Of a stretch of 64,000 nt of DNA, positions 13,362-61,000 are shown piece by piece. The translations under genes were made by a program, and so were the position numbers. The DNA is taken from positions 31,577-95,576 of the forward strand of contig JAGBFI010000016.1 in NCBI GenBank assembly GCA_017936585.1, read 5' to 3'. Numbering within the stretch: the stretch's first letter is position 1; each line of letters starts with the position of its first letter. Below the pieces are notes generated by a model that was given only the letters and a program-made list of their open reading frames with translations, was not told the origin of the DNA and did not search any database. The DNA comes from Clostridia bacterium. GTDB lineage: Bacteria > Bacillota > Clostridia > Christensenellales > UBA1242.

Positions 13362-13436
13362 TGGTGACCCCGACGGGATTCGAACCCATGATACCGCCGT
13401 GAAAGGGCGGTGTCTTAACCGCTTGACCACGGGGCC
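13362..13436 (-). tRNA. tRNA-Glu (anticodon UUC), CCA encoded
   Basis: The reverse complement reads GGCCCCGTGGTCAAGCGGTTAAGACACCGCCCTTTCACGGCGGTATCATGGGTTCGAATCCCGTCGGGGTCACCA. It has a 7-bp acceptor stem, an anticodon stem-loop CCGCC-CTTTCAC-GGCGG and a TTCGAAT T-loop. Confidence 0.9.
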
Positions 13437-41885: not shown

Positions 41886-42116
41886 ATGATTCTTGAAAAA
41901 GTGAAAGAGCTTGTTGCAGAACAACTTGGAATTTCAAAAGACGAAGTTCTTGCCGAATCAAACATTATTGAGGATTTGGGAGCTGACTCTCTTGATGTGA
42001 TTGAAATGTTGATGACTTTGGAAGAAGAATTTGGAATTTCAATTCCGGATGACCAAATCAATCAAATTAAGACAGTGAGCGAAATTGTTGAATTGATTGA
42101 AAAATGCAAAGCGTAA
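41886..42116 (+). CDS. acpP: acyl carrier protein
   Basis: Start ATG 41886 after GGAGG. 76 aa with phosphopantetheine site LGADSLDVIEMLMTLEEEFG. Confidence 0.9.
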   Translation: MILEKVKELVAEQLGISKDEVLAESNIIEDLGADSLDVIEMLMTLEEEFGISIPDDQINQIKTVSEIVELIEKCKA

Positions 42117-42355: not shown

Positions 42356-42619
42356 ATGAAGGCGTATATCAAAGAGAGAACTTTGCAACTTGCAGAGCAT
42401 ATTTCGCAAACTGAAGATACAATCAGGAGGACTGCTCAGATTTTTAATTTAAGCAAAAGTACAGTTCACAATGACCTGTCGAAGCGTTTAAGAAAAGTTG
42501 ATGAAAAGAAATATGAAGAAGTCAAAAAGATTTTGGATAAGAATTTTGAAGAGAAACATATCCGTGGCGGACAGTCTACAAAGAAAAAATATTTACAAAA
42601 CAGAGAATGTGAGCGATAG
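42356..42619 (+). CDS. spoIIID: stage III sporulation protein D (SpoIIID DNA-binding protein)
   Basis: 87 aa. MKAYIKERTLQLAEHI..T.DTIRRTAQIFNLSKSTVHNDLSKRL......EVKKILD.N..EKHIRGGQSTKKKY is collinear with B. subtilis SpoIIID. ATG 42356 follows GGAGGA. Confidence 0.9.
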   Translation: MKAYIKERTLQLAEHISQTEDTIRRTAQIFNLSKSTVHNDLSKRLRKVDEKKYEEVKKILDKNFEEKHIRGGQSTKKKYLQNRECER

Positions 42620-42914: not shown

Positions 42915-42944
42915 TTGACTTGTGCTTTGTATTTTTATTATAAT
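42915..42944 (+). promoter_or_regulatory. sigma-A type promoter of the giant gene
   Basis: TTGACT (42915-42920), 18-nt spacer, TATAAT (42939-42944). Predicted 5' UTR of about 43 nt ends in AGGAGGA (42984-42990). Confidence 0.5.
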
Positions 42945-42993
42945 TATTTATATAAATTTTCATGAAATTGCAGATAGTATTATAGGAGGACAC

Positions 42994-43062
42994 ATGAAAA
43001 AATTTGCGCTTGGCATTTTAAGTGTTTTTATAATCCTTGGAGGAGTACTTTTGTCGGCTTGT
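42994..43062 (+). other. type II (lipoprotein) signal peptide of the giant protein
   Basis: Basic n-region MKK, hydrophobic core, lipobox L-S-A-C with Cys codon TGT at 43060-43062. Confidence 0.75.
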
Positions 43063-46000
43063 GACAAGAGAGTTTCTTTGTCGGTTCCGGTTGATGAAGT
43101 TGTCATCTTCACCAATGACGAATCGGAAGAAAATCCAAAAGAGAAGGAGATTGGGTTGACGCTTGAAAATTCTTCTGCTGGGGTCAATGTTGAAATCTTG
43201 AATGGCGAAGATTGCATTCGTGTGTCGTCTGCAAAACGCAGGGGTGGAAACAATTATTATTTCACCATCTACGGTGACAGAGCGGGCACTGCGGAAGTAA
43301 AAGTTTCCGCTGTGGAAGATTCTTCGCAAGTCCACACAATTAACGTTGTGGTTAACACGATTTTGGAAGGTATTGAAACAAGCAAGAATGACACTGTCAA
43401 CAATCGCTCAAAACTTTTCATTGTGAAGGGTGGCGAAATTGACTTGAAGGCAGAGGAATATTTTGACTTTAAGCCTGAGACTGCAAACATTGTGGATGTG
43501 AATTGGACTTTTGAAGATGGAACGACAGAAATCTATCAAGACGACGTGCTTGTTGCTGAGATTGTTGATGCAAAATTGAAAGTTTATAACAATGACAACA
43601 ACACGCTTTCTTATGTGAGTTTGAAAGCAACATCAACAAGAAATGAAAAAGTGAGCAGTGTTGTCAGACTTGAGGTTCTTGAAAGTGCGACAATCAACAG
43701 AATGGCAATTCAAGACATTGCTGGAGAAATTGTGCTCTATCAAAACAACAGTCCTGCCGTGACAGATGTTGTTGAATTCAATTTAAAACGCAACGATGCA
43801 TCAAGAGCGGTGGCTTCTGGTGAAATCGTTGTCAACACAAAGTATGACGTTCAACTTTCACCAATCATCTTCAAGAAAGATGGCAAAAAGCTTGTTGAGC
43901 TGGCAGAGAATGAATGGTCAGAATATTTTGACTTCAACATCAACAGAAAGACAACTGACGAAGTGAATGGTCAGGTGAGATATAATTTCAGTTTGGATGC
44001 CTATGACAGAGACTCAATTTTGAGTTTTGGAAGCTTCATGCTTTATCTCAATGTGGGTTACAGAAACTATGCATATGACATCACAACAAAGGCTGTGAAT
44101 GTTCAAATCAATTCGACATATGCGGTTGAACAAATTGACCTTTATGACAGTCAAGGCGAAATGATAAACAACAGCGAAGTGAATGTCTATTCAAGTTACA
44201 GCAAAGTTTCGGACGCAACAGGCAGCTGGAGAGGCTATGAGGTTGATTCTTTGCTTAAGCCTGAAGAGGTTGCGCTCGACAACAACTTGTTTAGAATTTC
44301 AATTGATGTCAATCAAAATGATGTTTTGAGAAGATACATAAACGCACTTTCGCCAGAAGATAAAGAAAATCCAATTGCTGCGATTGCAAGTTTCAAGAAG
44401 AAAAATGGCAACGAAATAACTTTCAGCGCTTCTGCTGGCAGTGCAACATACGTTTCAGAAGAGATTGCAAGTGGTGAAGAAATCTATGTTTTGGCAAGTG
44501 GAAAGATTGAAAATATCTTGGAAAATGTCAGAGTGGATTTCATCCCTTCAAGTGATGTGACAAAAGCAACGAAAGTGTCATTCAACTTCATCAAAATCAC
44601 AGAAGATGCAACGCTTGGCGTTTTCAATGAAGATGGAACTGCTGTGACAAAGAGATTTATCTCTTCAAACAATGTCAGCACAAGAAAAATCTCTTATCGC
44701 GTGAGAATCAATGGTTTGACATCTCTCAGTGGTTTGGAACTTGTCAATGACAATTCACTTTTCAAATTTTCAGAAATGACACTTATCCCTGCGACTGATC
44801 CAGAAACTGATTTTGTGACAGTTGACTTTGACGTAACTCTGGAGGGGGCGAACTTTGAAGCAACAACAAAATTCTGGTTTGAGCACATCACTGGCAAGAC
44901 CTCGGAAATGTTTGAACTTGAGGCGTTCAGACCTTTGGAATCTGTTTCAATTTTGAACGCAGATGCTCAGTCTGCAAATGTCTACATTTCTCACACTGGG
45001 GTGCAAAGTTATGTTGAAAAGAATGGCACGATTTCTGAAAATGCAAATCTTCAAAATGAAACCCTCAGCAAACTTATGGTGGAAGCCGGAAGCATCATTT
45101 CTTTGAATACAACATATCAATCACTTTCTGATGCTGGAATTTCATACGCTTATCTTTCATATGAGACAATGGTTGAGCAGCTTGTTGACCTGCAACTTGA
45201 TGATTTGATTGACCAATTTATTGACGCTGGCTTGACTGATGAAGAGGCAACAGCAAAAGCCATGGAAATCATCGAACAACAAGCAAAAGACTTGTTCAAT
45301 GAAAAGTCGGCTTCAGTGGGCGGCACGATATATAAAAACGGACTTGAATTTGTTGCAAAGAAGATGTTTGACTCGTTTGGAATGATTGACAATGTTTACA
45401 TCAGTCAAATCAACGACACACGTTTGCAAGTGACAGACAATGAGTTTAAGGGCTACGTGCTTGTGAGATTCAACGGCTTTGATGCGGACTATAACTCCAT
45501 CACTGTTGTCAGAATCTTCGCTTTGGAAAGCTTCTATGCAGTCAACAGCTTGACTCCAAATGTCAAAGAAGATTTGCTTTACACAACCGAAACGCTCAGT
45601 GCAAATGATGTTGCAATGGCTTCAGTCGATGTGACAATTTCACTCAGAGCGGATGATAAGGTGCCAACATACAGCGCTCTAGAATATTTCAACTTCACTT
45701 CAGCAAAAGACAACTGGACAACAGACACTGCGAACAACCTTTTGCTCAAGAAAAACAGATTTTATACTGTCAGCAGCATTCAGCCATATCTCAATGGAAA
45801 ATATCTGACATTCACAATCACTGCGAATTCGACAAACTCTCAAACATCTTTCCATGACATTTTGACAATCACATACACAGACGATTATGGTTTTGAAAGA
45901 AAGACGGAAGTTTCGCTTGAAATTCGAAATGTTGAAAGAGTGGAGAGTGTTAAGTGGATCAATAGAACGCTGAATGATGAAATCTATCTCAACTTGACTT

Positions 46001-49000
46001 CTCGTAATACAGCCGATAAAAATTTCACAATTTCGACATCAGTTATGCCGGCTTCTGCCAACGATTTGGAACTTGCTCACGTTTTTGCTGCGTCCGGAAA
46101 TGCTGGAAATCTTGCAATCAATCCAAGCTTGAATGGGCAAACTTTCAACTTAAGCATTGACCCAGAGTTGAGCGATGGTGGCGTTGGTTTTTTGTATCTT
46201 TTGCCACAAGACATGGTGAAAATAGTGAACGGACGTCGTCAAATTTTGCTTTATCACTATGAAACAGACGAAAATGGAAACATTATGACTGATGAAGACG
46301 GCTATTTGAAAGAAACGGCTGTTTACATCAGCGAAAGCGAGATCAACAAAAATTATGACGCAATCATCAATGGTGGGGTTGTTGGCGAGGGCAACGATGC
46401 AAAAGAAGTTTCAAACTTCTTTATCAACAATGACGGAGAAAAAATTTACAACAAAAACATCATTTTGAAAATCAAAGTTATCCTTGCGGATGGCTCGGGC
46501 GAGGACACCGCAATCAGAGTTTACAATGAAAAGGAACTGAAGGATATTGACAGAGGTAATTTCTATTATCAAATCATGAATGACATCACATTGACCTCTT
46601 GGGAAGCTTTTGACAGCTATAATGGCACAATTTTTGGAACTTCAAACACAACGACTTTGACATTTGAAAACGGAAGTCAAAACTTTGTGAAGGTTTTGAA
46701 CGGAACAATCAAAAACCTCATCTTTGCGGGTGAGACAACAAGCACAGCAACTGACTACGCTGGCTTTATTGCAAACACAAACAAAGGGCGTTTGGAAAAT
46801 ATTTCAACAGACATCTATTATGATGGACAGTTTTACAAGAGCAGCACTCTCAACTCAAATGCATCATGCGTGGGTGGACTTGTTGGAAAGAACAACGGCG
46901 TGATTGACTCCTCATTCAGTTTTGGCTTGACAATCAACTCTTCTGCAACAACGGCAGGCGGACTTGTTGGCGAAAATAACGGAACAATTTCAAACTCCGG
47001 CGTGGAATTCTATTCATTCAGAGAGACCCAAACAACTCAAAGGCCTAACTCAATCACAGTCGGTGGAAACGGAGTTGTGGGCGGACTTGTTGGTTTGGCT
47101 TCTGAGGGAAGCAAAATTGAACGCTCATATGTTTATGCATATCCTTTGACAGAAAACGGAATTGTTGTTGACAATCTTGTGTATAACGGCAACATGGCTT
47201 TGTTTGTTGGAATTGGAAACGGTGCGACAAGCGTTTCAGAAAGCTTTGCGTTTGCCGGAGATTTGACAACCACAGTTTTGAGTTTCTCAGAAAATGTGCG
47301 TTTCAGCAATTCGTATTATATTTACAGAGGCTTCTCTGGAAAATCAATGAAATTCTTGACGACAAACAGCACATTAAACTCAATCACATTGACCACTGAC
47401 GGCGCAACGATTTCTGGCAGATGGGACGATGCGGTTGGCTTGCTTGACAAGTCGATTTGGCAGACAGAAGAGATTGATACACAAATCAACTTTGGCTTTA
47501 TGTATTTGAAAAACATTGCTCAAAGTGTGGCAGTTGATTTGGATGAAGTGCAAATTCAAAACAACACTTCTCCACTTCAATCTTTGCAAGTGGATACGGA
47601 ATCTGGAATTTTGTTTGTTTATGCTCCACAAGCAATAATCAGCAATCCAGCTGAACTTTCCGAACTTGAATCTTACAACACAATTTCACTTGCGAAACTG
47701 TTTGGTTTGACAGAGAAGCAGGCAAGAAGTTTGCTTGTTTCAAGCGAAAACACAAATGTTGCGCTTTCCACAACCTCTTTGAGAATGCTTAGCACAACAA
47801 CAAGCGAATTTACAATCACGGTTCATTCAAAAATGGATTTGACAAACAGCAAGCCACTCAAGTTTATTGTTCTCAACAGTTTGCCAGAAATGACAACAAA
47901 AATTGATGGAGAAGAACTTCTCGACGGGCAAATTGTGATGCTTCAAAAGAGCAAGGAACTTGACATTTCTTACACTTTGAAAAATGTGATTTATTTGAAC
48001 GGACAAGACTATCTCATCGACAGAGACGAATATGACATTGCTTTCACTTTGAACGGGCTTGAAACCACAGAAGACGATTATCTTTCTGCTGTGAAGAGCA
48101 ACAACGCGTTGCAACTTACTGGCAAAAACAGCCATGAGAAAGCGAACCCAAGTTTCATCTCTTCTTGGCTTGCAGTTGACAGTCTTGAAAGAAGATATGC
48201 CGCAGCGGTTGCAAATCAAAGAAAGAGAGAGTTTGAGGTTGCGGTTTACAACGGCGCCACAGATTTGAGAGTTGCAAATGCAAAGAATTTGGAATTTAAA
48301 CCATCAGAATATGCATCGTTTGATGTAATTATGGCAACGGATAACGCAGAGGACAATCTTGTGTTGACTCTGAAAATGGGTGAACTTCAATGGACAAGCA
48401 GAGAGGATGTAAATTCAGCGGTTTTCGAAATCAACAGCAGCTTGAAGATTGATGCTTCTTGGTCTTATGTTGAAGAGGTTAACGCAAGAAGATATACGGT
48501 TGTTGTTAAGGTTGACAACAGTTGCAAACATCTTGTTTCAAGTGATGTAAATTTTGAAATTTTGGTGAATGCGCTCAGCCAAATTGACAACACAAACTAT
48601 GTGAAGGCTGTTGGCATGACATTGAAAACTCAAAATGTTGATAAAGTGATGATAAATGCCTATTCAATCGATTCTCGCCGCATTGTATCTTCAGTGCTTT
48701 ATTTGGCAACGGCAAACAAAATTATCAGCACGCTTATGCCAGCAAGTGACGCAATCTTGGCTGTCAGTGTGCGCCCTGAATTTGCTTTGATGACACACTT
48801 CACTGTCACATACAGTGTTGTCAGCGAGGGCAAAATTGGAATCATCAATTTAACAAAACTTTCAAATGATTCAAGATATGGCTTCTATGTTGACTCACGA
48901 AACACAACATATTTGACAAACGGAATCAGAGTGGATTTGACTGACACGGATCGTGCTTCAAGGGGTGACTATTATTTCAGAATGTATGCTTCAAGTGCGT

Positions 49001-52000
49001 TTGGTGATGACAGCAGCGTGCTTTTGACAGTGACATATTACAACGGCGACGAGGTGCTTAAAATCGCGACAAAAGAGATGCAAGTTGACTATATGAAGAA
49101 TGCGACAGTTTTGGTTGAAGGCGCGGAAAGATATCTTCTTGCAAAGGGAGAAAGTGCAACCGTGACGATTTCAGTTGGCGCTGACCAAAGGCTTGCAAAC
49201 CTCTATCTTGAAGGTAACGGAACAAACATCTCTCTTTCAAGTTGGTTAGAAAAACTTGAAGGAAACACCAGAACCTACACAGCAACGCTTGTGGCTCACG
49301 TGGACGCAACTGTTTTGGATAAGGATGGAAATCATAAGTCAACGGGAGTGTTCTATGTTTGTGCAAACGTTGAAAGAGTTCTCAATGGAGAGCAAGAAAT
49401 CAAAACAAGCCGTGCGGTGGTCGGTTTGATGGATTTCACTTTGAACGAAGGCGAAATTTCACTCGCTGCAAGTGACGGTACAACAACATATAATGGAAAA
49501 GAATATGACGTTCTTTACACATACATCGGGGCGAGTACAACGCTCAGCTTCAACTATCCAATTATGCCAGAGGACTATAACTATGACGTCAACGATGCAA
49601 ACGAAGTGGAAGAAATGAAGCGAATTTTGCAAGAAAGACAAAAATTCTTATTGAAAAACACTTATGCAAACGAGGATGTTCAATATTACATCAACTATGA
49701 ATATGACAGAACAACGGCGACGTACAAAGAACTTACATTGAAAGAACAACTTTATTTTGCAAGCAACGAAGACGACGCAACAGCGATTTATTCTTCAAAC
49801 TCTGGGCTTCGCGACAACGATTTATTCACGATTGATGAAGAAAATGTTGGAAATGTTGCAGGGGTTGAAAACGCCACAGAACTTGTTATTCGCGGAACAA
49901 CAACGGGCAGACAACTGATGAAACTTGAAACGATTGTTATGTATGAAGGACAAGTTTTGAGAAGAATCCCATACTATTTTGTGATTGTTGTTGACACATG
50001 GACGGACGAAGAAACTCCAACATGCATCAACACAGCGGAAGAATTTATTGAATATGCAACAGAATCAGAAAAGCCAGATGATTACATTTTGATGAACGAC
50101 ATCGTGCTTGAGGACTATGAGCCGCTTTCAACAGAACTTATATCATCTTTGGATGGGAATGGCTACACAATCCATTTGAACAGCTTTAAAGAGCAAACTG
50201 GCAGCTCAGTCAACTATGCTTTGTTCTCTGAAGTTGCTGAAGGAACAACACTTAAGAATGTCCGTGTCAACATTTATGGCGGAGGACAAATCACTGTCAA
50301 TGTTGCACAAGGGGCAACCAGCAGGGTTTACGCTGCGGGTTTTGCAATCATAAACAACGGAATTATATACAACTGCGAGGTTGTATCCTATTTCAGTGAC
50401 CATCAAAAGACAGCCATCTCTGGCGCGACAGGACTTGTGGTGAAATATGTTGATGGTTTGAACACTGACCCAATTCAAATTTCTGGAGCAAGAGAAATTG
50501 AAAGTGTTGTTGCGGGATTTGTTTATGAAAACAACGCATCAATCACAAACAGCCGTGTTGGTGGCGAGAGCTTCAGATATATCAAAGATATTGCGGGACA
50601 AGATTACATTGCAACTCAAAAGCTTGGAACTTTCACTTTGGAAGGACAAGGCGAGGTTGCCGGATTTGTTGCAACAAACGCTGGCTACATCAGTGCATCA
50701 TTTGCGGACAATATGCAAATCAACAACATGATGAATTCAAACATATCTGCAACAGCTGGCTTTGCACTTTACAACACTCAAAACATTCAGAACAGCTATA
50801 TTGAAGGCGTGGGAATCATTGAGGATGAAAACAACAACAAGATTGTTGAACATGACCTCACAAACATCACATCTATTGGTGTTGTTGCGGGCTTTGTTTA
50901 TGACAACTCAGGGCTTGTGAAAAATTCTTATGCAAACATTGCAATCGAGAACACAAAAACAAAACCAGCATATGCTTCCGGCTTTGTTTACACAAATCAG
51001 ACTGCCGGAGAAATCACGCTTTGCTACACTGCTTGTGCAATTTCAAAGAGTGACGTCAACCAGTTGCCATTCTCAGGTGTGAGCAGCTCAACAACCTCTC
51101 TCAACTATGGCAAAATCACACTTTCATATTTCTATAATTCGACAAAAATTGACGACACAAGCGAAAGCAGTTTGACCTCAGGGGCAACTCCAGTGACAGA
51201 AATTTTGTCCGACCCAGAAAATGCACTTTATGGCTTCAGTTTTGCTTCTTCCGATGATGCTTATGACGGCATATGGACAAAAACTGACAACGGAATCACT
51301 CTTGTCAGTGCAAACAAGATTGCATTCTCAAATCGCTATTCAGTTTATGATGAAAAAACTCAAATGACATCGATTTTCTATAACAAGTCAATCAGAGATG
51401 CAGAAACTCTCATCAGCGAAAACCTTTCTTATGGAAGCGAAAACAACCCAATCATCATCAGAAATGCCTATGACTTTGCTGTGGCAACGGGCGCTGCAAC
51501 TTCAAAAGAAATTTCAGCATATAAGGAATATTACACAAGCAAAGAAGTGTTTGGAAATTATAGGGTTGTCAACGACTTGGCATTTGACGATGAAAACGTT
51601 GACCAAAACGCAACAAGCGAAGGGAAAGCAAAACTTACAACAACAGAAAAAACATTCTCTGGAATTTTGGATGGAAATGGATTCACAATTTCAGCAATCA
51701 ATTTGGGAAGTAGCAAGGATGTTGAAAACTTTGGTCTGTTTGCAAAACTCAATGGTGCAGTTGTGATGAATCTGAATCTTATCGTTGACTCAGTGCACAA
51801 CTCTCAAGCAACAATTGTGGGAACTTTGGCAGGAACAGCGATTGACTCTCGAATTATTGCCATTTCGCTTGCTCCAATCTCAACTCAAGGAAAAGGTGAA
51901 AGCACTTTGATTGAAGGTTTCAACATTGTTGGTGGCGTTGTTGGAATGTTGTTTGGAGAAAGCAAGATTCATGACATTGAAGTGAAAAACATCGAAATCT

Positions 52001-55000
52001 TCTCTGGTGATCATGATGCAAGCAAGACGATTGGCTCAAACAGTGTAGCAGTTGCAGGAATGAGAGCTCTTGCTCAAGAAAACAAATCTCTTGATGCACA
52101 AGCGGAAACCCTTTCATATGCGGGCGCAGTTGCCGTATATGTGGACATTTATGACAATGTCAACAACGAAAAAGTGAAATATTCATCTTTGAAAGCCAGT
52201 GACTATGACATCGTCACAGTTCACGTGACAGACTCAGTCAACATCTACGGCGAGGTTGCTGGAGGATTGTTTGGATACGTTGGCGATTCGACATATGTCT
52301 ATGACGCAACGCTTGAGCTCGATTCAAATGATGATTTGGAAAACCCTTCTTACATCATTTCAAAAAATCTCTATGCGGGTGGTTTGATTGGTGAAAACTA
52401 TGGCGGATTGTTCGCTGTTTATGCAAGCCATGAAAAAACTCTTCAAGACGAAATTGAAGAAAGCGAAAATGACTATTACACAGGCGAAAATGTGGATGCA
52501 GAAAGAGGACAAATGTCAATCTTCTCATACACAGAAAAAGACGCGCACGTCAAAAAGAGATATGATGACCCACTCTATATCGGCGGTCTTGTTGGATATA
52601 TGGGCGGCGGATACATCAATGTGGGATACAACAAACTCAACGTGATTTCACGCTCTTCAGCAACAAAAGCGGTGGGTGGCTTGATTGGTGTTGTTGCAAA
52701 CAACGAAACAACCTTCGAACTTTTGTCTCTCACAAACGCTCCACGTGTGAACATCTATTTGAAAGATGTTTATGCTTCTGGCGATTTGTATGCTGACGGA
52801 ACAAACACAACAAGTGCGGGAATTGTTGGTGCAATTTGCAACGACCCTGCAATTGGAATGAAAAACGTGCTTGCAATGAATTATTATTCATACAATGGGA
52901 CGACTCTTCTTGGCGATACTGCCGCAACAGTAAATGCACAAGGAGTTGTTGCCAGCGACAAGCATTTTATGCTTATCGGAAAAGCATACAATGCAAATGT
53001 GGATGCAATTTCTGAGCAGGCAAACTTGAATTCAAACATCTATGTCATCACAAGTGCAGACTCATACACAAATGTCAGAACTGGAGAACCTAAAGTTGCA
53101 ACAGGTTCTGCAACGGTGGGCGGTTATAGTTCAATTTCAATTGGGGCAGGCTCTTCATCTGCGGTTTCTGTCAGCCTTTCTCAATTTGGATTTAAACTCA
53201 ATGACAGAGCAATTGCAATGAGTTCAGACATCATCTTAAACAGCGAACATATCGGTGACAGCTGGATGGAAGAAATGCCAACCGCATATGTGCGTTTCTC
53301 ACAATATTTCCTCGAAAACGGATGGCAAGAAGAATATTGGGTTCACACTCAAGACGAACTCTTCCCTCACATAGAACTTTTGACAAAATCAAACATTGTT
53401 TATTGGGATGTTTTCAACACAAGAGAGGTTCTTACAAAGATGGCATCTGATGACGCTTTGACGGTTATTGTCAGAGGAAAAGTCAGCCAAACAGAAAACG
53501 ATCACGACTATGCAGATATCGACCTTCGTGCCTCTGCTTCAGATGTTGATGGACTTTTGAACTTTGAAACCTTGACAAACTTCAATGGAACTCTCACTTC
53601 TTATTATCAATACATGAACGAAGACGGAAATGTGTTTGTGACCAACGCGGCAGAAGGCAATGTTGGTGGAGAGGCGGGAGATCGTCCTGGAATTATTCTT
53701 GACAAGCCAATGTTTGAGAACATAAGTGGAAATAAAAACACAATCGAAGGGCTGAACATCTATTTCGTCCCAGGTAAGAATGCTGATGGGGCTGAGCTTA
53801 ACGACATCAACTATTCTTTTGTTGAAAATGAAACAAACAAGGCAATCTTCAATGATATTAATCTTATTTATAACAACAATGTTGCGTTGACAACCAATGT
53901 TGTTGAAAGTGCAGACAAGATTGTTGCAAACGCAGGGTTGGTTGCTCCAAAAGCAGATTCAACAACTTTCATCAACATCAATGTGACAATGAGGAATGAA
54001 AGTTCAATCACTTTCAACACTGAGGCGCTTCCAGCACAAACTGAGGGCACTGCACCAAAGTCAACAGAGGTTTATCTTGGAATTATGGCTGGCTATATTG
54101 CCCAAAGCGCTGACTTCAATGCAATCAGTGTTGAAGGAATCAATTTTGACAATGGGGTTGAGGCAAGCGTTGACTCAATTCAAATCAATGTGACAGGAAA
54201 CAACTCAAGTTATGACTCCTTGTATTTCGGACTTTACGCAGGAAGAATTTACAAGACAGTTGGTGGAACCTCAAAGATTTCTGTTGGACTTTCAAGTCTC
54301 AACAGCGTGAACATTAATTTGCAGAATATGGCGAAAGAGAACAACTATGTTGGCGGGTTTGTTGGTGACTTGCAAGGCGTTGAACAAGCAACCTTGCAAT
54401 CATCTGTGGTTAAACCTGGCAGCACGGGTGTTTCAATCATCCTGGAGAATGCCACGGTTGACTCTTTCTATGGTGGGCTTGCATTTGGCCGTGTTGACAA
54501 TTCCACAATAACAATCTCTGCTGGTGACGGCAAGGGTGAACTTCTTGGAGGAATTTATCAAAAGGGTGCTGTTTATATTGGCAGAACAAACATTGGAGCG
54601 ATTGCAGGATGGACAAATTCTTCAATCACTGTTCAAGGTTTGGCAGCGACTTTCAATGTTGGTAGACTTATAAGACTTGGCGAAAACAAATGGATTTTTA
54701 AAGATTATTTGACCAAATCAAATCCAGAAAATGATGAAGAAACAATTTTTGACTTGAATAAATATGATTATTCTCTCAGCGCTTTCACCACAGGCGGAGA
54801 TGTCAACGACAGCATTGGTGGATATTTTGGATATGTTGACAGCGGAAGTTTGTTGAAAATCACTGGTGCAGTTCAAGTTGATGGTGTGATTGATGTCGCA
54901 ACTGTTTATGATGAAAATGATGAAACAGAAACGATTTCAGTTGGTGGACTTATCGGGAAAATCACAGGCGCGGTTGAAACAAACATGAGTCTGTCAAACA

Positions 55001-58000
55001 ATTTGGACATTTCAGTTCAGGAAGATTTTGATTCGACTAAAAATTCAGTTTATTCAGCAACAGCTTATGTTGGAGGTGTGATTGGTTGGGTGCAAAGTGT
55101 GACATCTGATGAAAGTGAGACGCCAAGTTATCCATCGAATTACTTTGTGAAAATCAACCAAAACTCTTCAAATTATGTCAGATACAACGGAACAGTTCTG
55201 TCCGCAGTGAATGACCTTGTTTTTGGTGGAACAATTGGAATGGTTTCAAGAGGAAATTTCTTCAATGCAAACTATCCTGTTGCAATCTCAAATGCTGTTT
55301 ATGGCGGGGCTGTGAAGGCTTATGGAGACAAACTTGCTGGTGGCAAGTTGACTGTCGGAGGTGTTGTTGGAGAATATGGAGAAAAGGTAAATCCTTCAAA
55401 TTTGCCATGTTATTACACTATCACAAAGTCATATTCATATGGAGATGTGTTTGTTAACTATCGTGAAGTGAATGCACAAAAACAGTATGTGAATGACAGA
55501 TTAAGTACATATAACTTCGGAGGAATCGTTGGTTCTGCATCACGTATTGCAATCTCAGACTGCTCTTCAATTATGACGTCATTCAACAACAAAGTTCCTT
55601 ATGGAACAAACCTTTCATCAACAACAATTGGTGGATATTCAGTTGGAGCAATTGCAGGAGAAAGCAGCGGAGCGGCAATCTATTCAAACAACAAATATTC
55701 TTCTGGAGTTTCTCTTGCATATCAATTGCAGGACGGAAACCAGGATGTCCTTTATGGTGACTCTGAAGGAGCATATGTCGGATACACAAATCAAGTTGCA
55801 AAGGGAACTGAGGGCGAAACTCTCACTCTTCCAACAACAACAGAAAACATCTTGGATTTGTTTGCAGATTTCTTAACTTCGGAATCTGGGGAAGGACACA
55901 AACTGAATCCATATATGTGGGATGAAACTGATGAAGTAATCACATCAGCTTCAAACAAGACATTGGTTGGATCAAAAACACTTTCTTCTTCTCATAACAT
56001 CTCATGGGTGGCTCTTGCAAAAGATCTTGCTGGTGACAACAAGAGAATTTCCCCTGTGACTGACAATTTGACAAATGTTGCTTTTGTCGGCAACGGACAT
56101 ATCATTGAAATTGAAGACGAAAGACAGGTTGGAAAACTAGATGAAAACTCAACACTTTCAGATGCAAAAGATTTGGGTGCATTTGTCAATTCAATGGGTG
56201 TTAAATATAATTTAGATTTGAATGATTTATCATCAAACAGACCAAATTTCAATTTAGTTTCAGGCATGATTTTGGATTTGAATGTCAACGAAGTTGAAAT
56301 CAATGGTGGAGCATATTCTTATGGCGGTGTTGCAGGACGCAGCTATGGAAACTCATTCGTTTATGGTGTTGGAGTTCAAGGCACACTGTCTGTTGGTGGA
56401 AAAGATGACCAGCTTCTTTTGGCAGGCATCATCGGCTCAATGGATGAAGGGTTCATAAATGAGTGCTATGTTGACGCGCACATCTCATATCGTGCCGCAG
56501 AAGGGGGCTATGTTTCTGGAATTGCAAATGTTGCTGACTTTAACACAACTATAAAAGCAACATATTCTTCAGGCTTGATTGAAGCATACACAAATGTTCC
56601 AATCTATACTTTTGCATTCTCTTCTGAAAACACTAGCAACGCAACTCAGAATGCACTGATTGATTGCTATTCAATCACTCAAACAAAGAGAACAAATGTG
56701 TTCAGTGATGCTTCAACGGTTAACGAGGGTGTTTATTTCATCAATTTGGACACAAGCAATAAGTTTGACACATCAAGGTTTAAAACTTATGGCGAAGTCG
56801 TGCATGGTTGCTATGATGTGAGTGAAGCGTTGGCTGCGGACAGTATGGCGTTGGCTTACTATCAAGATGATTTGAGTGAAAGAAAATTGACGATAGATTA
56901 TGCTGATGAAGGAGAGAAAACATACTCTTCTTGGTACTTCTCTCCTTATGTTAACTATGGATATGCGGCACATGGATTTGGCTATCTGAAAAATGTAACA
57001 ACCTACACAAGAGCGGTTGTTGAGGCAGAAACGGCGACAGAAGAGGGCGCTGAGGTTGGTGCGACAGAGACAGATATCCCTGTTTATGATGCGGATGAAT
57101 ATGAATACACAGCAGTTTCCTATTCTGATATTTTGGCAAACGGCGCAAGCGACACCTTTGGAAATGTTGCAAAAGATGAAAGCAAATGGTGGTATTTGGG
57201 TGTTCCAAATGCAGGCAAGTTTGGACAGATGATCAGCACAATTGAGACGGGAAGCGAAAACTATGACAAAAACTATAGATTTGTTTTGCGTTATGGGTTT
57301 GATATGTCAAACTTTGCAGCTCTGCTTGGTAAGGATGTTGGAAAAGAGACCATGAGTCTTGTGATTGACGGAAATGGAAACACACTTAACTTTGAAAACA
57401 ACGGAGGCCTTTCAACAGCTCTGTTCAAAACGATGAACGGAAGTGTTGACAACCTGCGTCTTGTTGGAATCAAATCGTCTGCAAAAGGAACTCTTGCGGA
57501 AATTGTGAATGGAAGCATCACAAACATCACGGTTGTGGGCGAACTTACTCCTTCCGCGGGTCCTGCCGGTGGTGTTGTTGGAGAACTGAACGGAAGCGCA
57601 ACCAATGTTGAAGCTGTGGTGAACATTGACGGAAGTACTTCAATTATGGGCGGTGTTGTAGGAAAGATGACAAGTGGAATAATTTCCTACTCTTCAAACA
57701 GCGGAAGAATCGTGAACACATCAACTACAGGCTCTGGATTTAACATCGGACAAATTCAGTCAAATGGAGAATTCTTGGGTGCGGTTAATTCAACTGTGAC
57801 GGGTGGTGTTGTTGGCGTTGCGGATGGCGGCAAAGTTGAATTCTCATACAACGCGAACGCTGTTTTGGGCGGATACACAATAAGCACAGCTGGAAAGTAT
57901 GTTGTTGGTGGAGTTGTCGGCTATGCAAATGGGGTGACAATCAATCATGCATACAACACTGGTCTTGTTGGAGCTGGAAATTACACAAGCGAAGACACAA

Positions 58001-61000
58001 TTTCATATGCAGGTGGAATTGTTGGTTATGGTGCAAGCGGCAGCGTTTCAAACAGCATCAATGACGCACAGGTTGAGGCAATCAACAAATTTAACAAAAA
58101 TAAGTCAAAGCTTTCTTACTCATTGAAATCTGGTGCGGAGGAGACAACAGAATATAGTGCAAATCCAGCCCCTTTGAGTTACAGCGTGACAATGACATAC
58201 AATGACGGATTGGCAAGACACGTTTATGCTTATGGCGTGGGCTTCATGGCGAGCGGAAGCATTGAAAGCAGCAGCTCTTCAACTGACAATATCAAAAATG
58301 ATGGAAACATTGGTCAGGTGACAGACACACAAACTCTGACCTTTGATCGTGCGGCAATGCTTGATAATGGCGGGAATGAAAAATATCAAGCGATCTACAA
58401 TGCCGGAACAAAAGGAGATGACGGCTTTGGGAATGCAACATACACAAAAGAACTGTATATCAGTGGATATGACTCATACGGTGTGCCAGCCCGTGTCTAT
58501 ATGAATGACAACATGACAAGGATTTACAATGACGACACGTTGCTTGGCTATGCAAAAAAACATGTGGATTATGACTACGGGCACTGGTATGGAGCTTTGT
58601 TTGGTTGGGGCTATACTCGAGCTCAGAGAAGTTATGCTGTTGTTGCGGATTCTTCTGGGAAGACCTCCTCAAAACAGGATGCAACTTTGCAGAGTGACAA
58701 GACTCTTTTTGCTTCTGGCACTGCTGAATTTAATAGGACGTATTATCTCTCAGCTGAAACACAATATTATTCTTCAGTTGAATTCCAGGAATATGACACC
58801 AAACTTTCAAATGCAGGAGGGGTTGGTTGTGTTGCTGGAGTAACTTGTGGAACGTCTTATTCAAGAGTAAATTCAACAATTGAAAAACAAATTGAAAAAA
58901 TTGATGAAAAGAATGAAAATGGTGCAGGAATGCAAATTCTTTCAATCAATGGAGAGAATGTTGCTGTTGTCAAAAACAAACAAAATGTGCAAGCTGTTCT
59001 CGCTCCGGCATCATTGACATTTGGTCCTATTGAAATTGAAATTTTGGATGAAAAAACTGACTTTGAGTCCATCAAGGAAAGTGATTTGGCAATCAGTGTT
59101 ATCAAGAACGTTGGTGGGGTTGAGAGCGATGTTGGATATCAATTCTATGACCTCATCCAGTTTGCAAAGAATGCAGAGGAGAGAACAATCACTGTTGAGG
59201 GAACAATCTTTTTCACCAGCAGTGTTGAAGGAGATATCTCTGTTAAAACTGCAATTGACTATAGTTCTGTTATTGGATCTTTTGAACTTAGAAAGAACAA
59301 TCTGTATATAGATGAAAGCGGAAAAACAATAATTGATCTTGGGGAAACTGTCGTGTTTGAAGAAAATGTGACATCTTACAGTTACTCAATCAATGATACA
59401 GAATATATTTTCGACCGTGATGAAGAAAACAATATGCTTATTTACAATGGAAGAGAAAATTTAATAGAGTTGTACAGCGGAAATGCTACATTGATTATTT
59501 CAAGGACAAAACAAGTTGCTCGCAAAACAACAATTGAAGCAAAATTCACAACGACTTCAGAAACTCAGGAAGAGGCAATTGGTGCGGCAGAATATACGAC
59601 AGAAACTCTCACTCTTATCGGATATACCACAGGCACTTTGGGAAATCTCTCATTTGAAGATGTCACAGCAGCAATCGTTGACTCAGATTCTGGGGAAGAA
59701 CAAACAATTGTGACAGGAAAGAAAATTGCTCTTGAAAACATTTTGAGTAAATTTGGAAACACTTCAAAACTTGCATTTGGTGACAATTCAAACTATATGG
59801 TTTCTTACAACAATGGAAGATGGAGTGTTGTGGACGACAGCCTTGACGATGGAGTTTTGGTTTCAATTGAACAAGGATATTTGGTTTTTTCATCTTCAAC
59901 AACTGATGGAACAACAGAAACAAAAACTGATGTTGTGATTGACGAAACGTTCTTGGCAAATATGGCATACTGGCAGGTTTATTACGCAAAAACTGGAACA
60001 ATTGCAAGTGAAACAGGATATTCTTATATATCCAGAAATTATGCAGGTGAAATGTTTAATCTGACTTTTGCGCCTGCGGACAACGGAGATTTCAAAATCA
60101 ACACATATTCTCAGAAAGTTGAATATAGCGGATCGAATTTTGAAGCATCAACTGGAACAAATGTTGAAACTGTCACAACAAACTTTTGTGGAATTGATTT
60201 TGTTTCAAAGAAGGTTCCAATCACATACAGCAAGCTTCTTTCAGCTCAAGCAATATTGAGAAAAGCGAATGTGGGATATGAATTGAGCGTGACGGATTCA
60301 CAGGGAAAGCTTAAATTTGTAAAACAAGGATATGTAGGAGATTCCGTAAGCACATCAGTAGATTTGCCAAGCACAGCGTCTTCAGGAGATGTTGTTAGGT
60401 TTACAACATTTAAGCAAAAAATTTATGAAGGCACTGAGGAACTTACAAACTATATTTATGCGACAGGAGAGTCAAACAGCATTTCGTTCAGAAGTTATTC
60501 TGAGTCCGGTGATGAAGAAGAAAATGAATCAGAAACAATATCGTATTCAGTGACGAAAACAAAGTATCCGGAAACTGTTACAGATGGAGAATCATCAATT
60601 ACATCAGATAATTGTCCTTATTGCGGGGGAACTTGCAATTCGATTTCAACGAGAAAGGACTATATGAAAGATAATTGGGTTAGAGATGATGTGATGTATA
60701 ATTATGTATACACTATTTATGATTGTGGGGTTATTGAGGTTGAATATACCGACATATCAAATTCGGAAACTACAGGTAAAAAGTTTGTGTATAAAACGAT
60801 CAATGGAAATGTGACGATGGATGAATATACTATGGTTCAAAGTGCAGAAAAGTCTTATGTTACAGATGCAAGTGGAAATCGTATTGATACGAACGGAGAT
60901 GGAGAAATCAACGAAGATGATATGCAATACTCATACTCATGGAAGCAAGAATCTGGAGTTGAATTGAATTTTGATTACATGCAGAAATATGGTGACATTA

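Follow-up and report, generated by a model that had tools for sequence, protein, structure and literature searches.

A giant protein of tandem, diverged GLUG beta-helix modules as a candidate lipid-anchored adhesin fibre in an uncultured Clostridia bacterium

The giant protein and its closest described relatives

The N-terminal domain of the pneumococcal IgA1 protease (PDB 6XJA, 6XJB, and 7UVL) provides the closest solved example of a GLUG beta-helix, with the helix itself being compact and comprising ~270–290 residues (residues ~781–1070; PMC7695701), and tandem chains of GLUG modules mixed with beta-sandwich domains are already known. Here we describe a diverged, new example of this known kind of surface protein, a giant protein of 6,582 amino acids (aa) that is, on balance, best read as a lipid-anchored adhesin fibre, encoded by a 19.7 kb gene within a 64,000-nucleotide (nt) stretch (hereafter the window) of contig JAGBFI010000016.1 from an uncultured gut Clostridia bacterium. 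A sequence-only reading of the window had described positions 46513–58320 as six to seven diverged copies of a three-part module composed of a lead-in, GLUG beta-helix turns, and an aromatic cap, and this range belongs to a single open reading frame (ORF; 42922–62742, + strand), of which it makes up the middle 60%, rather than being a series of distinct features. The protein has exactly the sequence of NCBI MBP3431504.1, a 'hypothetical protein' from a Clostridia bacterium metagenome-assembled genome (MAG), and its family escapes Pfam and NCBIfam almost entirely, being annotated as hypothetical only. The gene and the parts of its product, with modules designated M1–M7, are as follows:

42994..62742 (+): giant gene, 6,582 codons plus stop, with the likely ATG at 42994
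42994..43062 (+): predicted lipoprotein signal peptide MKKFALGILSVFIILGGVLLSAC, with lipobox L-S-A-C and Cys23
43063..46470 (+): N-terminal region, presumably membrane-proximal (aa 24–1159), no Pfam or NCBIfam match
46471..47493 (+): M1 (aa 1160–1500), lead-in AIRVYNEKEL...MNDITL, 5 turn anchors, cap IWQTEEID
47494..49980 (+): spacer I1 (aa 1501–2329, 829 aa), predicted string of immunoglobulin (Ig)-like beta-sandwiches, then a mixed alpha/beta end
49981..51318 (+): M2 (aa 2330–2775), lead-in CINTAEEF...MNDIVL...LDGNGYTI, 8 anchors of A-G-F type, cap DGIW...TLVSAN
51391..53388 (+): M3 (aa 2800–3465), lead-in PIIIRNAYDF...VNDLAF...LDGNGFTI, 11 anchors, helical insertions, cap YWVH..LFPHIELL
53389..55938 (+): M4 (aa 3466–4315), longest module, degenerate lead-in, 13 anchors, cap KLNPYMW
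55939..56988 (+): M5 (aa 4316–4665), degenerate lead-in with VGNGHIIEI, 4 anchors, cap SWYFSPYVNYGY
57091..58593 (+): M6 (aa 4700–5200), lead-in ...IDGNGNTLNF, 5 GGVVG anchors, no clear Trp cap
58594..61290 (+): region I2 (aa 5201–6099), least conserved, many indels, no family match
61291..62739 (+): M7 and C-terminus (aa 6100–6582), lead-in only (YMLLAADFSL...FGDNYVLRF...IVDLNVVG), no GLUG anchors, Trp-rich end

The giant protein shares with the IgA1 protease domain the repeat core x-G-G-h-h-G-x-N-x-G-x-I and the D-G-N-G-x-T-I lead-in, and structure prediction suggests that the right-handed fold is common to both, with IgA1 protease chain 6xja_P being the only PDB match with a Foldseek probability of 1.00 among the matches listed (452 aligned columns). 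The beta-helix of the protease is similar in size to M1 and M5. Unlike the protease, which possesses a single module, the giant protein carries six to seven modules of up to 850 aa with insertions and lacks the M26 catalytic domain, the HExxH motif, and LPXTG. No HExxH is present in the 6,582 aa and no match to Peptidase_M26_C was found, and a reading of the protein as an M26 protease was rejected on these grounds.

Searching 1.84 billion representative proteins with M1 (HMMER) returned 205 relatives at E ≤ 1e-3 and 11 at E ≤ 1e-30, seven of which are ~6,360–6,640 aa in length, the other four (472–3,734 aa) being apparently fragments. All eight of the non-orthologous relatives that were scanned are GLUG proteins (E 1e-7 to 1e-53), with five also matching Peptidase_M26_N (PF05342). 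Several contain modules in tandem, with P0040 (1,414 aa) possessing five modules ~300 aa apart, P0029, P0057, P0059 (WP_020617886.1, a Paenibacillus daejeonensis 'immunoglobulin-like domain-containing protein'), and P0123 possessing three each, and P0077 (4,635 aa) combining 22 GLUG stretches with 4 cadherin-like domains. These large secreted proteins share with the giant protein the lead-in and chains of GLUG turns accompanied by Ig- or cadherin-like beta-sandwiches, and the M1, M3, and M6 profiles match them module by module, lead-in included (E 1e-7 to 1e-20). In P0040, the M1, M3, and M6 profiles match residues 73–238, and positions 144–250 of PF05342 match residues 66–174; the lead-in match thus coincides with the Peptidase_M26_N match of a tandem-module GLUG protein, and the architecture is therefore known. 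This indirect link suggests that the lead-ins are of the type covered by the C-terminal half of PF05342. By sequence, the three-part module appears to correspond to the GLUG beta-helix domain already known, preceded by the lead-in that usually accompanies it.

The giant protein stands out in how far its modules have diverged, in how widely they vary in length, in its lipobox, and in a size fixed at ~6,000–6,900 aa. The tandem-module relatives display a regular ~300-aa period and strong Pfam GLUG matches (E 1e-8 to 1e-169), whereas the modules of the giant protein range from 341 to 850 aa, share no more than ~32% mutual identity, and largely escape Pfam. Furthermore, the Trp cap region of M1 is matched by orthologues only, and the N-terminal lipobox, a Gly-rich C-terminus, and the lineage-wide length distinguish the giant-protein family from these relatives. 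The GLUG assignment made from sequence alone holds for M1 when tested with the Pfam hidden Markov model (HMM) PF07581, which scores 22.0 bits against a gathering threshold of 20.5 bits (E 2e-4, three stretches), and fails for M2–M7. PF07581 thereby misses five of the six GLUG-type modules as well as M7, and PF05342 misses all of them, with no match in the giant protein at E ≤ 10 and weak matches in single orthologues (E 0.011 and 0.0021). Pfam scans of the protein as two halves of ~3,400 aa yielded nothing at E ≤ 0.01, so scans of individual modules are needed, and an NCBIfam scan found no family. GLUG matches nevertheless recur among orthologues, occurring in M1 of 14 of 16 (best E 1.4e-11), in M6 of 14 of 16 at E ≤ 1 (best E 8.1e-6), and in M4 of 4 of 16 at E ≤ 1. 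M2, M3, and M5 are tied to GLUG solely through profile-profile homology with M1 and M6 (92–98%). Profile searches with M1, M6, I1, and I2 plus M7 against PDB sequences returned nothing meaningful, and I1 and the M7 region had almost no matches in a word-indexed protein database.

The beta-helical adhesins Ag43 of Escherichia coli (7KOH and 4KH3), pneumococcal PfbA (4MR0), and EtpA of enterotoxigenic E. coli (8VBB) share with the modelled modules an elongated right-handed beta-helix and a rod or adhesive surface, occupying Foldseek ranks 1, 4, 29, and 42; these matches are weak (E 0.015–0.7, TM-score 0.07–0.16), and there is no sequence relationship. Secretion and anchoring also differ, with these adhesins relying on type V autotransport, two-partner secretion, or LPXTG, and the giant protein on a predicted lipobox.

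Module homology, orthologues, and predicted folds

The motifs quoted in the sequence-only reading were all located within 3 nt of the positions given for them, with LDGNGYTIHLNSF at 50149, LDGNGFTISAINL at 51667, VGNGHIIEIED at 56086, and IDGNGNTLNFEN at 57364, and the caps at 47455, 51268, 53332, 55906, and 56929. Six modules, M1–M6, lie within the range it described, and the seventh, M7, comprises a lead-in only and lies outside it; measured lengths of 341–850 aa (1.0–2.55 kb) agree with the ~1.0–2.5 kb proposed. M2, M3, M4, M5, and M6 adjoin one another directly or via linkers of 24–34 aa. The count of more than 35 turns calls for qualification, as the full 16-residue consensus matches nowhere, while looser cores and anchors are enriched within the modules. 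A 6-residue turn core yields 21 matches, all inside modules (shuffles: mean 1.75, maximum 8), and a looser 5-residue core yields 35 matches against 9 expected. Anchors of the form [GAS]-G-h-h that are conserved in orthologues number 5, 8, 11, 13, 4, and 5 in M1–M6 (46 in total), with none in 2,862 aa of spacers and none in M7. An iterated 21-residue turn HMM recovers just 11 turns at ≥3 bits, an undercount that stems from the divergence of the turns. The aromatic (Trp) cap said to close each module is conserved across orthologues in M1–M5, with the consensus IW, DGIW..TLVSAN, YW.H..LFPhIqL, KLNPy.w, and tWYF.pYvNyGY respectively, but no clear cap is evident in M6.

The absence of long exact DNA repeats, remarked upon from the letters, is borne out, with the longest direct repeat spanning 49 nt (71% identical) and DNA self-BLAST giving 29 bp at best. 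Tandem repeats are absent from the DNA, and the direct repeats of 24–49 nt are imperfect, some encoding the turn core. At the protein level, a BLASTP self-comparison of the full protein returned the identity match only, and pairwise comparisons of modules by BLASTP and phmmer gave marginal E-values that are unconvincing alone (best BLASTP pair M1–M6, 30% identity over 98 aa, E 3e-5; most others E > 1e-3). Profiles sliced from an alignment with 15 collinear orthologues and compared by HHalign gave probabilities of 97.1% for M1–M2, 97.6% for M1–M6, 97.9% for M3–M6, 95.4% for M4–M6, 94.0% for M3–M4, and 92.3% for M5–M6, with M7 matching M1 and M6 at 80–82% over the lead-in portion only. All module-spacer and spacer-spacer comparisons, serving as a control, were ≤2.4%, and the similarity between modules is therefore not compositional.

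At 2.5 times M1's length, M4 carries 13 conserved anchors. The M1 profile aligns both to an interior stretch (M4 residues 345–567) and to later turns, and M4 may have arisen when two ancestral modules fused and one lead-in was lost.

Among uncultured Clostridia, a genome scan with a single-sequence query identified 19 related loci from independent MAGs, with complete ORFs (~5,400–6,740 codons) in 12 and the others cut by contig or locus ends. Fifteen were usable as orthologues, being ~5,400–6,900 aa and collinear over their whole length, and their alignment to the giant protein contains few gaps up to aa ~5,100. When all modules of all orthologues were compared with one another, 108 of 110 had as their nearest relative the same-position module of another species. 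Same-position pairs score a median of 261 bits, and cross-position pairs reach at most 48.5 bits and 32% identity. It follows that the modules were duplicated before these species radiated and that their order has not been shuffled since. This agrees with the earlier suggestion of ancient duplication and divergence rather than assembly collapse, and the proposed search for module shuffling within and between orthologues found none.

Conservation is uneven along the protein. Mean pairwise identity across all pairs is highest in M2 (60%), followed by M3 (54%), the N-terminal region, M1, and I1 (44–46%, the N-terminal region at 44%), M4–M6 (39–42%), M7 (30%), and I2, the least conserved region (24.5%). 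In the closest pair of loci, L001 and L014, protein identity is 96–98% from the N-terminal region through M3, and then drops to 91% in M4, 86% in M5, 78% in M6, 54% in I2, and 49% in M7. Their DNA identity is ~95–97% across the first 10 kb of the giant gene and 42–60% from aa ~5,175 to the stop, save for one ~600-nt window at 76%, and returns to 99.3% in the 270 bp directly downstream. Between L001 and L014, the last third of the gene (window ~58500–62742) is thus a localised hypervariable region. This pattern suggests that the distal end diverged by recombinational replacement or under strong diversifying selection; the sequence from the window lies at much the same distance from each orthologue whichever region is compared, and is neutral on recombination of its own gene.

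AlphaFold2 modelling of M2 and M3 together, run with 13 database homologues, gave a predicted template modelling score (pTM) of 0.77 and a mean predicted local distance difference test score (pLDDT) of 70. The M2 part has a pLDDT mostly of 80–97 and ~37 short strands in a regular pattern over ~310 residues. Nearly all among the 50 PDB matches listed by Foldseek for this model are beta-helices or beta-solenoids, including Ag43, the pneumococcal IgA1 protease, pectate lyases, PL6 lyases, and tailspikes, and the beta-helix rods anticipated from the sequence are accordingly what the model of M2 and M3 predicts. The spacer I1, modelled from 8 partial homologues, is predicted to form consecutive beta-sandwiches with a pLDDT of 70–93 over model residues ~250–660 (aa ~1750–2160). 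Foldseek returned 498 PDB matches for I1 at E ≤ 1e-3 (best 8.9e-10), all of them chains with Ig-like domains, including protocadherin, CFA/I pilins, ICAM-5, invasin, SbsC, and AgI/II. In neither the giant protein nor the 15 orthologues does I1, I2, or the N-terminal region reach threshold for a Pfam Big, Ig, or fn3 family. The picture of rods separated by Ig-like spacers therefore applies to I1, which lies between M1 and M2, but not to the stretch between M2 and M6, where no such spacer occurs.

Anchor, proposed fibre, and rival readings

The N-terminal signal of the giant protein has the layout MKK-FALGILSVFIILGGVLL-SAC, comprising a basic n-region, a hydrophobic h-region, and a lipobox (pattern used: [LVI][ASTVI][GAS]C), and is thus that of a predicted bacterial lipoprotein, a putative substrate of Lgt and LspA. 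It is the sole hydrophobic segment of the protein, with neither an LPXTG motif nor a C-terminal membrane segment found in a scan of the sequence, and most orthologues carry the same kind of signal ending in Cys. Processing by Lgt and Lsp would hold the protein at the cytoplasmic membrane via lipidated Cys23, from which it would project as a fibre. At roughly 0.48 nm for each beta-helix rung and ~4 nm for each Ig-like domain, such a fibre would, when extended, measure of the order of 100 nm. A stalk and rigid rods would be supplied by the conserved proximal two-thirds, M2–M3, the most conserved, may carry a conserved binding face, and the distal third (I2 and M7), the fastest diverging, may confer variable ligand or partner specificity. 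Anchoring at the N-terminus places the fast-evolving part at the distal end. The sequence-only reading also raised the idea that the diverged module surfaces could differ in binding specificity. In M1, M4, and M6, invariant positions are occupied mostly by Gly, Asn, aromatic, and hydrophobic residues, which structural constraints would lead one to expect.

The adhesin fibre is a reading we hold with moderate confidence, and a number of points weigh against it. Its most likely role, attachment to another cell, host mucus, or a particle, is deduced from architecture and variability, and the crossing of the peptidoglycan wall by a membrane-anchored lipoprotein is an assumption. Enzymes, too, are built on beta-helices, and HMMs could miss an active site that has diverged. 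The structure models cover only M2 with M3 and I1, and the M3 part, similar to M2 with helical insertions, is of moderate confidence, with its last ~130 residues outside the model. The M2 and M3 model has no Foldseek match in the PDB at E ≤ 1e-3, and PF07581 reaches only E 5 in M4 and E 2.2 in M6 of the giant protein, with nothing in M2, M3, M5, or M7. Additionally, placement in the family UBA1242 rests, within this analysis, on orthology and synteny with locus L003 and not on a marker-gene tree.

A non-specific envelope or coat layer, S-layer- or mucin-like, serving in shielding or phage exclusion rather than binding a defined ligand, would also account for a very large, secreted protein rich in Ser, Gly, Asn, and Thr and poor in Cys (25 Cys in 6,582 aa). 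SbsC and Sap, both S-layer proteins, are among the many structures that I1 resembles, and hypervariable distal parts are also expected from evasion of phage or immunity. We consider a coat unlikely, however, with Pfam detecting no SLH or other known S-layer or wall-binding domain, a single N-terminal lipid anchor and rod modules suiting a fibre more than a lattice, and the strong conservation of M2–M3 suggesting a specific constraint. The Foldseek matches to pectate lyases, PL6 lyases, tailspike depolymerases, and the IgA1 protease raise instead a surface enzyme array, built of lyases or hydrolases of the pectate lyase superfamily or of IgA1-type protease parts, that would degrade glycans or the walls of other cells. 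One orthologue weakly matches Pectate_lyase_5 (E 0.022), as single orthologues do Peptidase_M26_N, and the title of a preprint links giant proteins of other reduced-genome bacteria to cell-wall degradation (bioRxiv 10.1101/2023.11.21.568195). These fold matches reflect the shared solenoid (E > 0.01), however, and no lyase, hydrolase, or peptidase family reaches threshold in the giant protein or its 15 orthologues; Pfam and NCBIfam detect no enzyme, toxin, or wall-binding family in any of them. With HExxH lacking and no conserved acidic or basic cluster evident among the invariant residues, no catalytic signature was found, and an enzyme array is for this reason distinctly improbable.

The distal third, highly variable between close relatives with near-identical flanks, and the filamentous beta-helix architecture would also suit a contact-dependent delivery protein or polymorphic toxin, in which a beta-helical filament presents a variable C-terminal toxin. 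Variability, however, peaks in I2 and not at the extreme C-terminus, where M7, the Gly-rich stretch, and a terminal WTSGE..NSGG motif are common to orthologues, and no toxin, pre-toxin, or secretion-partner domain was found. Given a conserved C-terminus followed by a conserved RadC gene in place of a small variable immunity gene, a polymorphic toxin is very unlikely. The source being a MAG, the ORF or its repeats might in principle have arisen from assembly collapse, chimerism, or chance; the chance of this is negligible, with the same protein deposited at NCBI, a protein differing by one residue on a 118,758-bp ENA contig, 19 related loci in independent MAGs (15 usable and collinear over their whole length), no near-identical DNA repeats, and a signal peptide, ribosome-binding site, and promoter-like site all present.

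The interest of a lipid-anchored adhesin fibre lies mainly in the organism that carries it. One related locus, L003, is named Candidatus Caccovivens, which corresponds to the GTDB genus UBA11517 of the family UBA1242 (Christensenellales) and has a type genome of 1.1 Mbp (PMC8035907). UBA1242 genomes are mostly <1 Mbp and retain sporulation genes, a finding called unexpected, and an obligately symbiotic or parasitic life on other cells has been proposed for the family (PMC12306168). These widespread uncultured gut bacteria are thought to be dependent on other cells, but machinery for attachment or interaction has not been described in them, the text of PMC12306168 containing none of 'adhes', 'surface', 'giant', 'lipoprotein', or 'large protein'. 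A single conserved gene of 19.7 kb, which would constitute ~2% of a ~1-Mb genome, is a concrete candidate for such machinery and offers a handle for enrichment, imaging, and partner identification. Tentatively, and with considerable doubt, the ~20-kb gene could be envisaged as encoding the attachment organelle of a partner-dependent UBA1242 lineage, with the M2–M3 rods and a recombining hypervariable distal third choosing the target cell or host surface. For annotation, the family illustrates that tandem GLUG beta-helix modules can diverge past the Pfam model, and that profiles built from orthologues recover them.

Distal features, promoter, and chromosomal setting

The M7 lead-in has the orthologue consensus YIIL..DISLG...F..N.K.I.GN.Y.L...SLF..NS..I.NLN.VG, and is followed by a Gly-rich stretch (>30% Gly) at aa 6274–6407 (61813–62214), in which motifs such as GGNGGVGGLGR and GGGGGGQAG are conserved in orthologues; this stretch has no Pfam, NCBIfam, or PDB match. 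Region I2 contains a C-P-Y-C-G-G-T-C motif at aa 5874–5881 (60613–60636), with the CxxC kept in about half of the orthologues. An EF-hand-like loop, DTNGDGEINEDD, at aa ~5965 (59900–60900 region; Pfam EF-hand E 0.26) was dropped as a candidate, being conserved in none of the orthologues, and is probably a chance match or lineage-specific.

Upstream of the giant gene, between it and a gene encoding an M23 peptidase, lie the following features:

41886-42116 (+): acyl carrier protein (PP-binding, 76 aa)
42356-42619 (+): SpoIIID-family sporulation regulator (87 aa)
42915..42944 (+): candidate sigma-70-like promoter TTGACT-18-TATAAT, 11 of 12 consensus positions matched, identified by consensus match only

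The promoter candidate lies ~50 nt upstream of the start codon, and a Shine-Dalgarno sequence, AGGAGG, lies 5 nt ahead of the ATG at 42994. The gene order M23 peptidase, acyl carrier protein, SpoIIID, giant gene, and RadC is kept across the orthologous loci, and this conserved position in the core genome indicates that the giant gene is vertically inherited. No mobile-element or phage signals adjoin the gene in the window.

A terminator-like hairpin with a T-rich run at 43048–43070 (+) lies within the region coding for the signal peptide, and could be a chance occurrence or an attenuator. Further upstream, the segment 17813–41783 encodes a RecD2 helicase, a P-type ATPase, Mfd, a flippase-like membrane protein (LPG_synthase_TM), and the M23 peptidase, and a tRNA-Glu(UUC) at 13362–13436 (−) is likewise in keeping with an ordinary chromosomal context.

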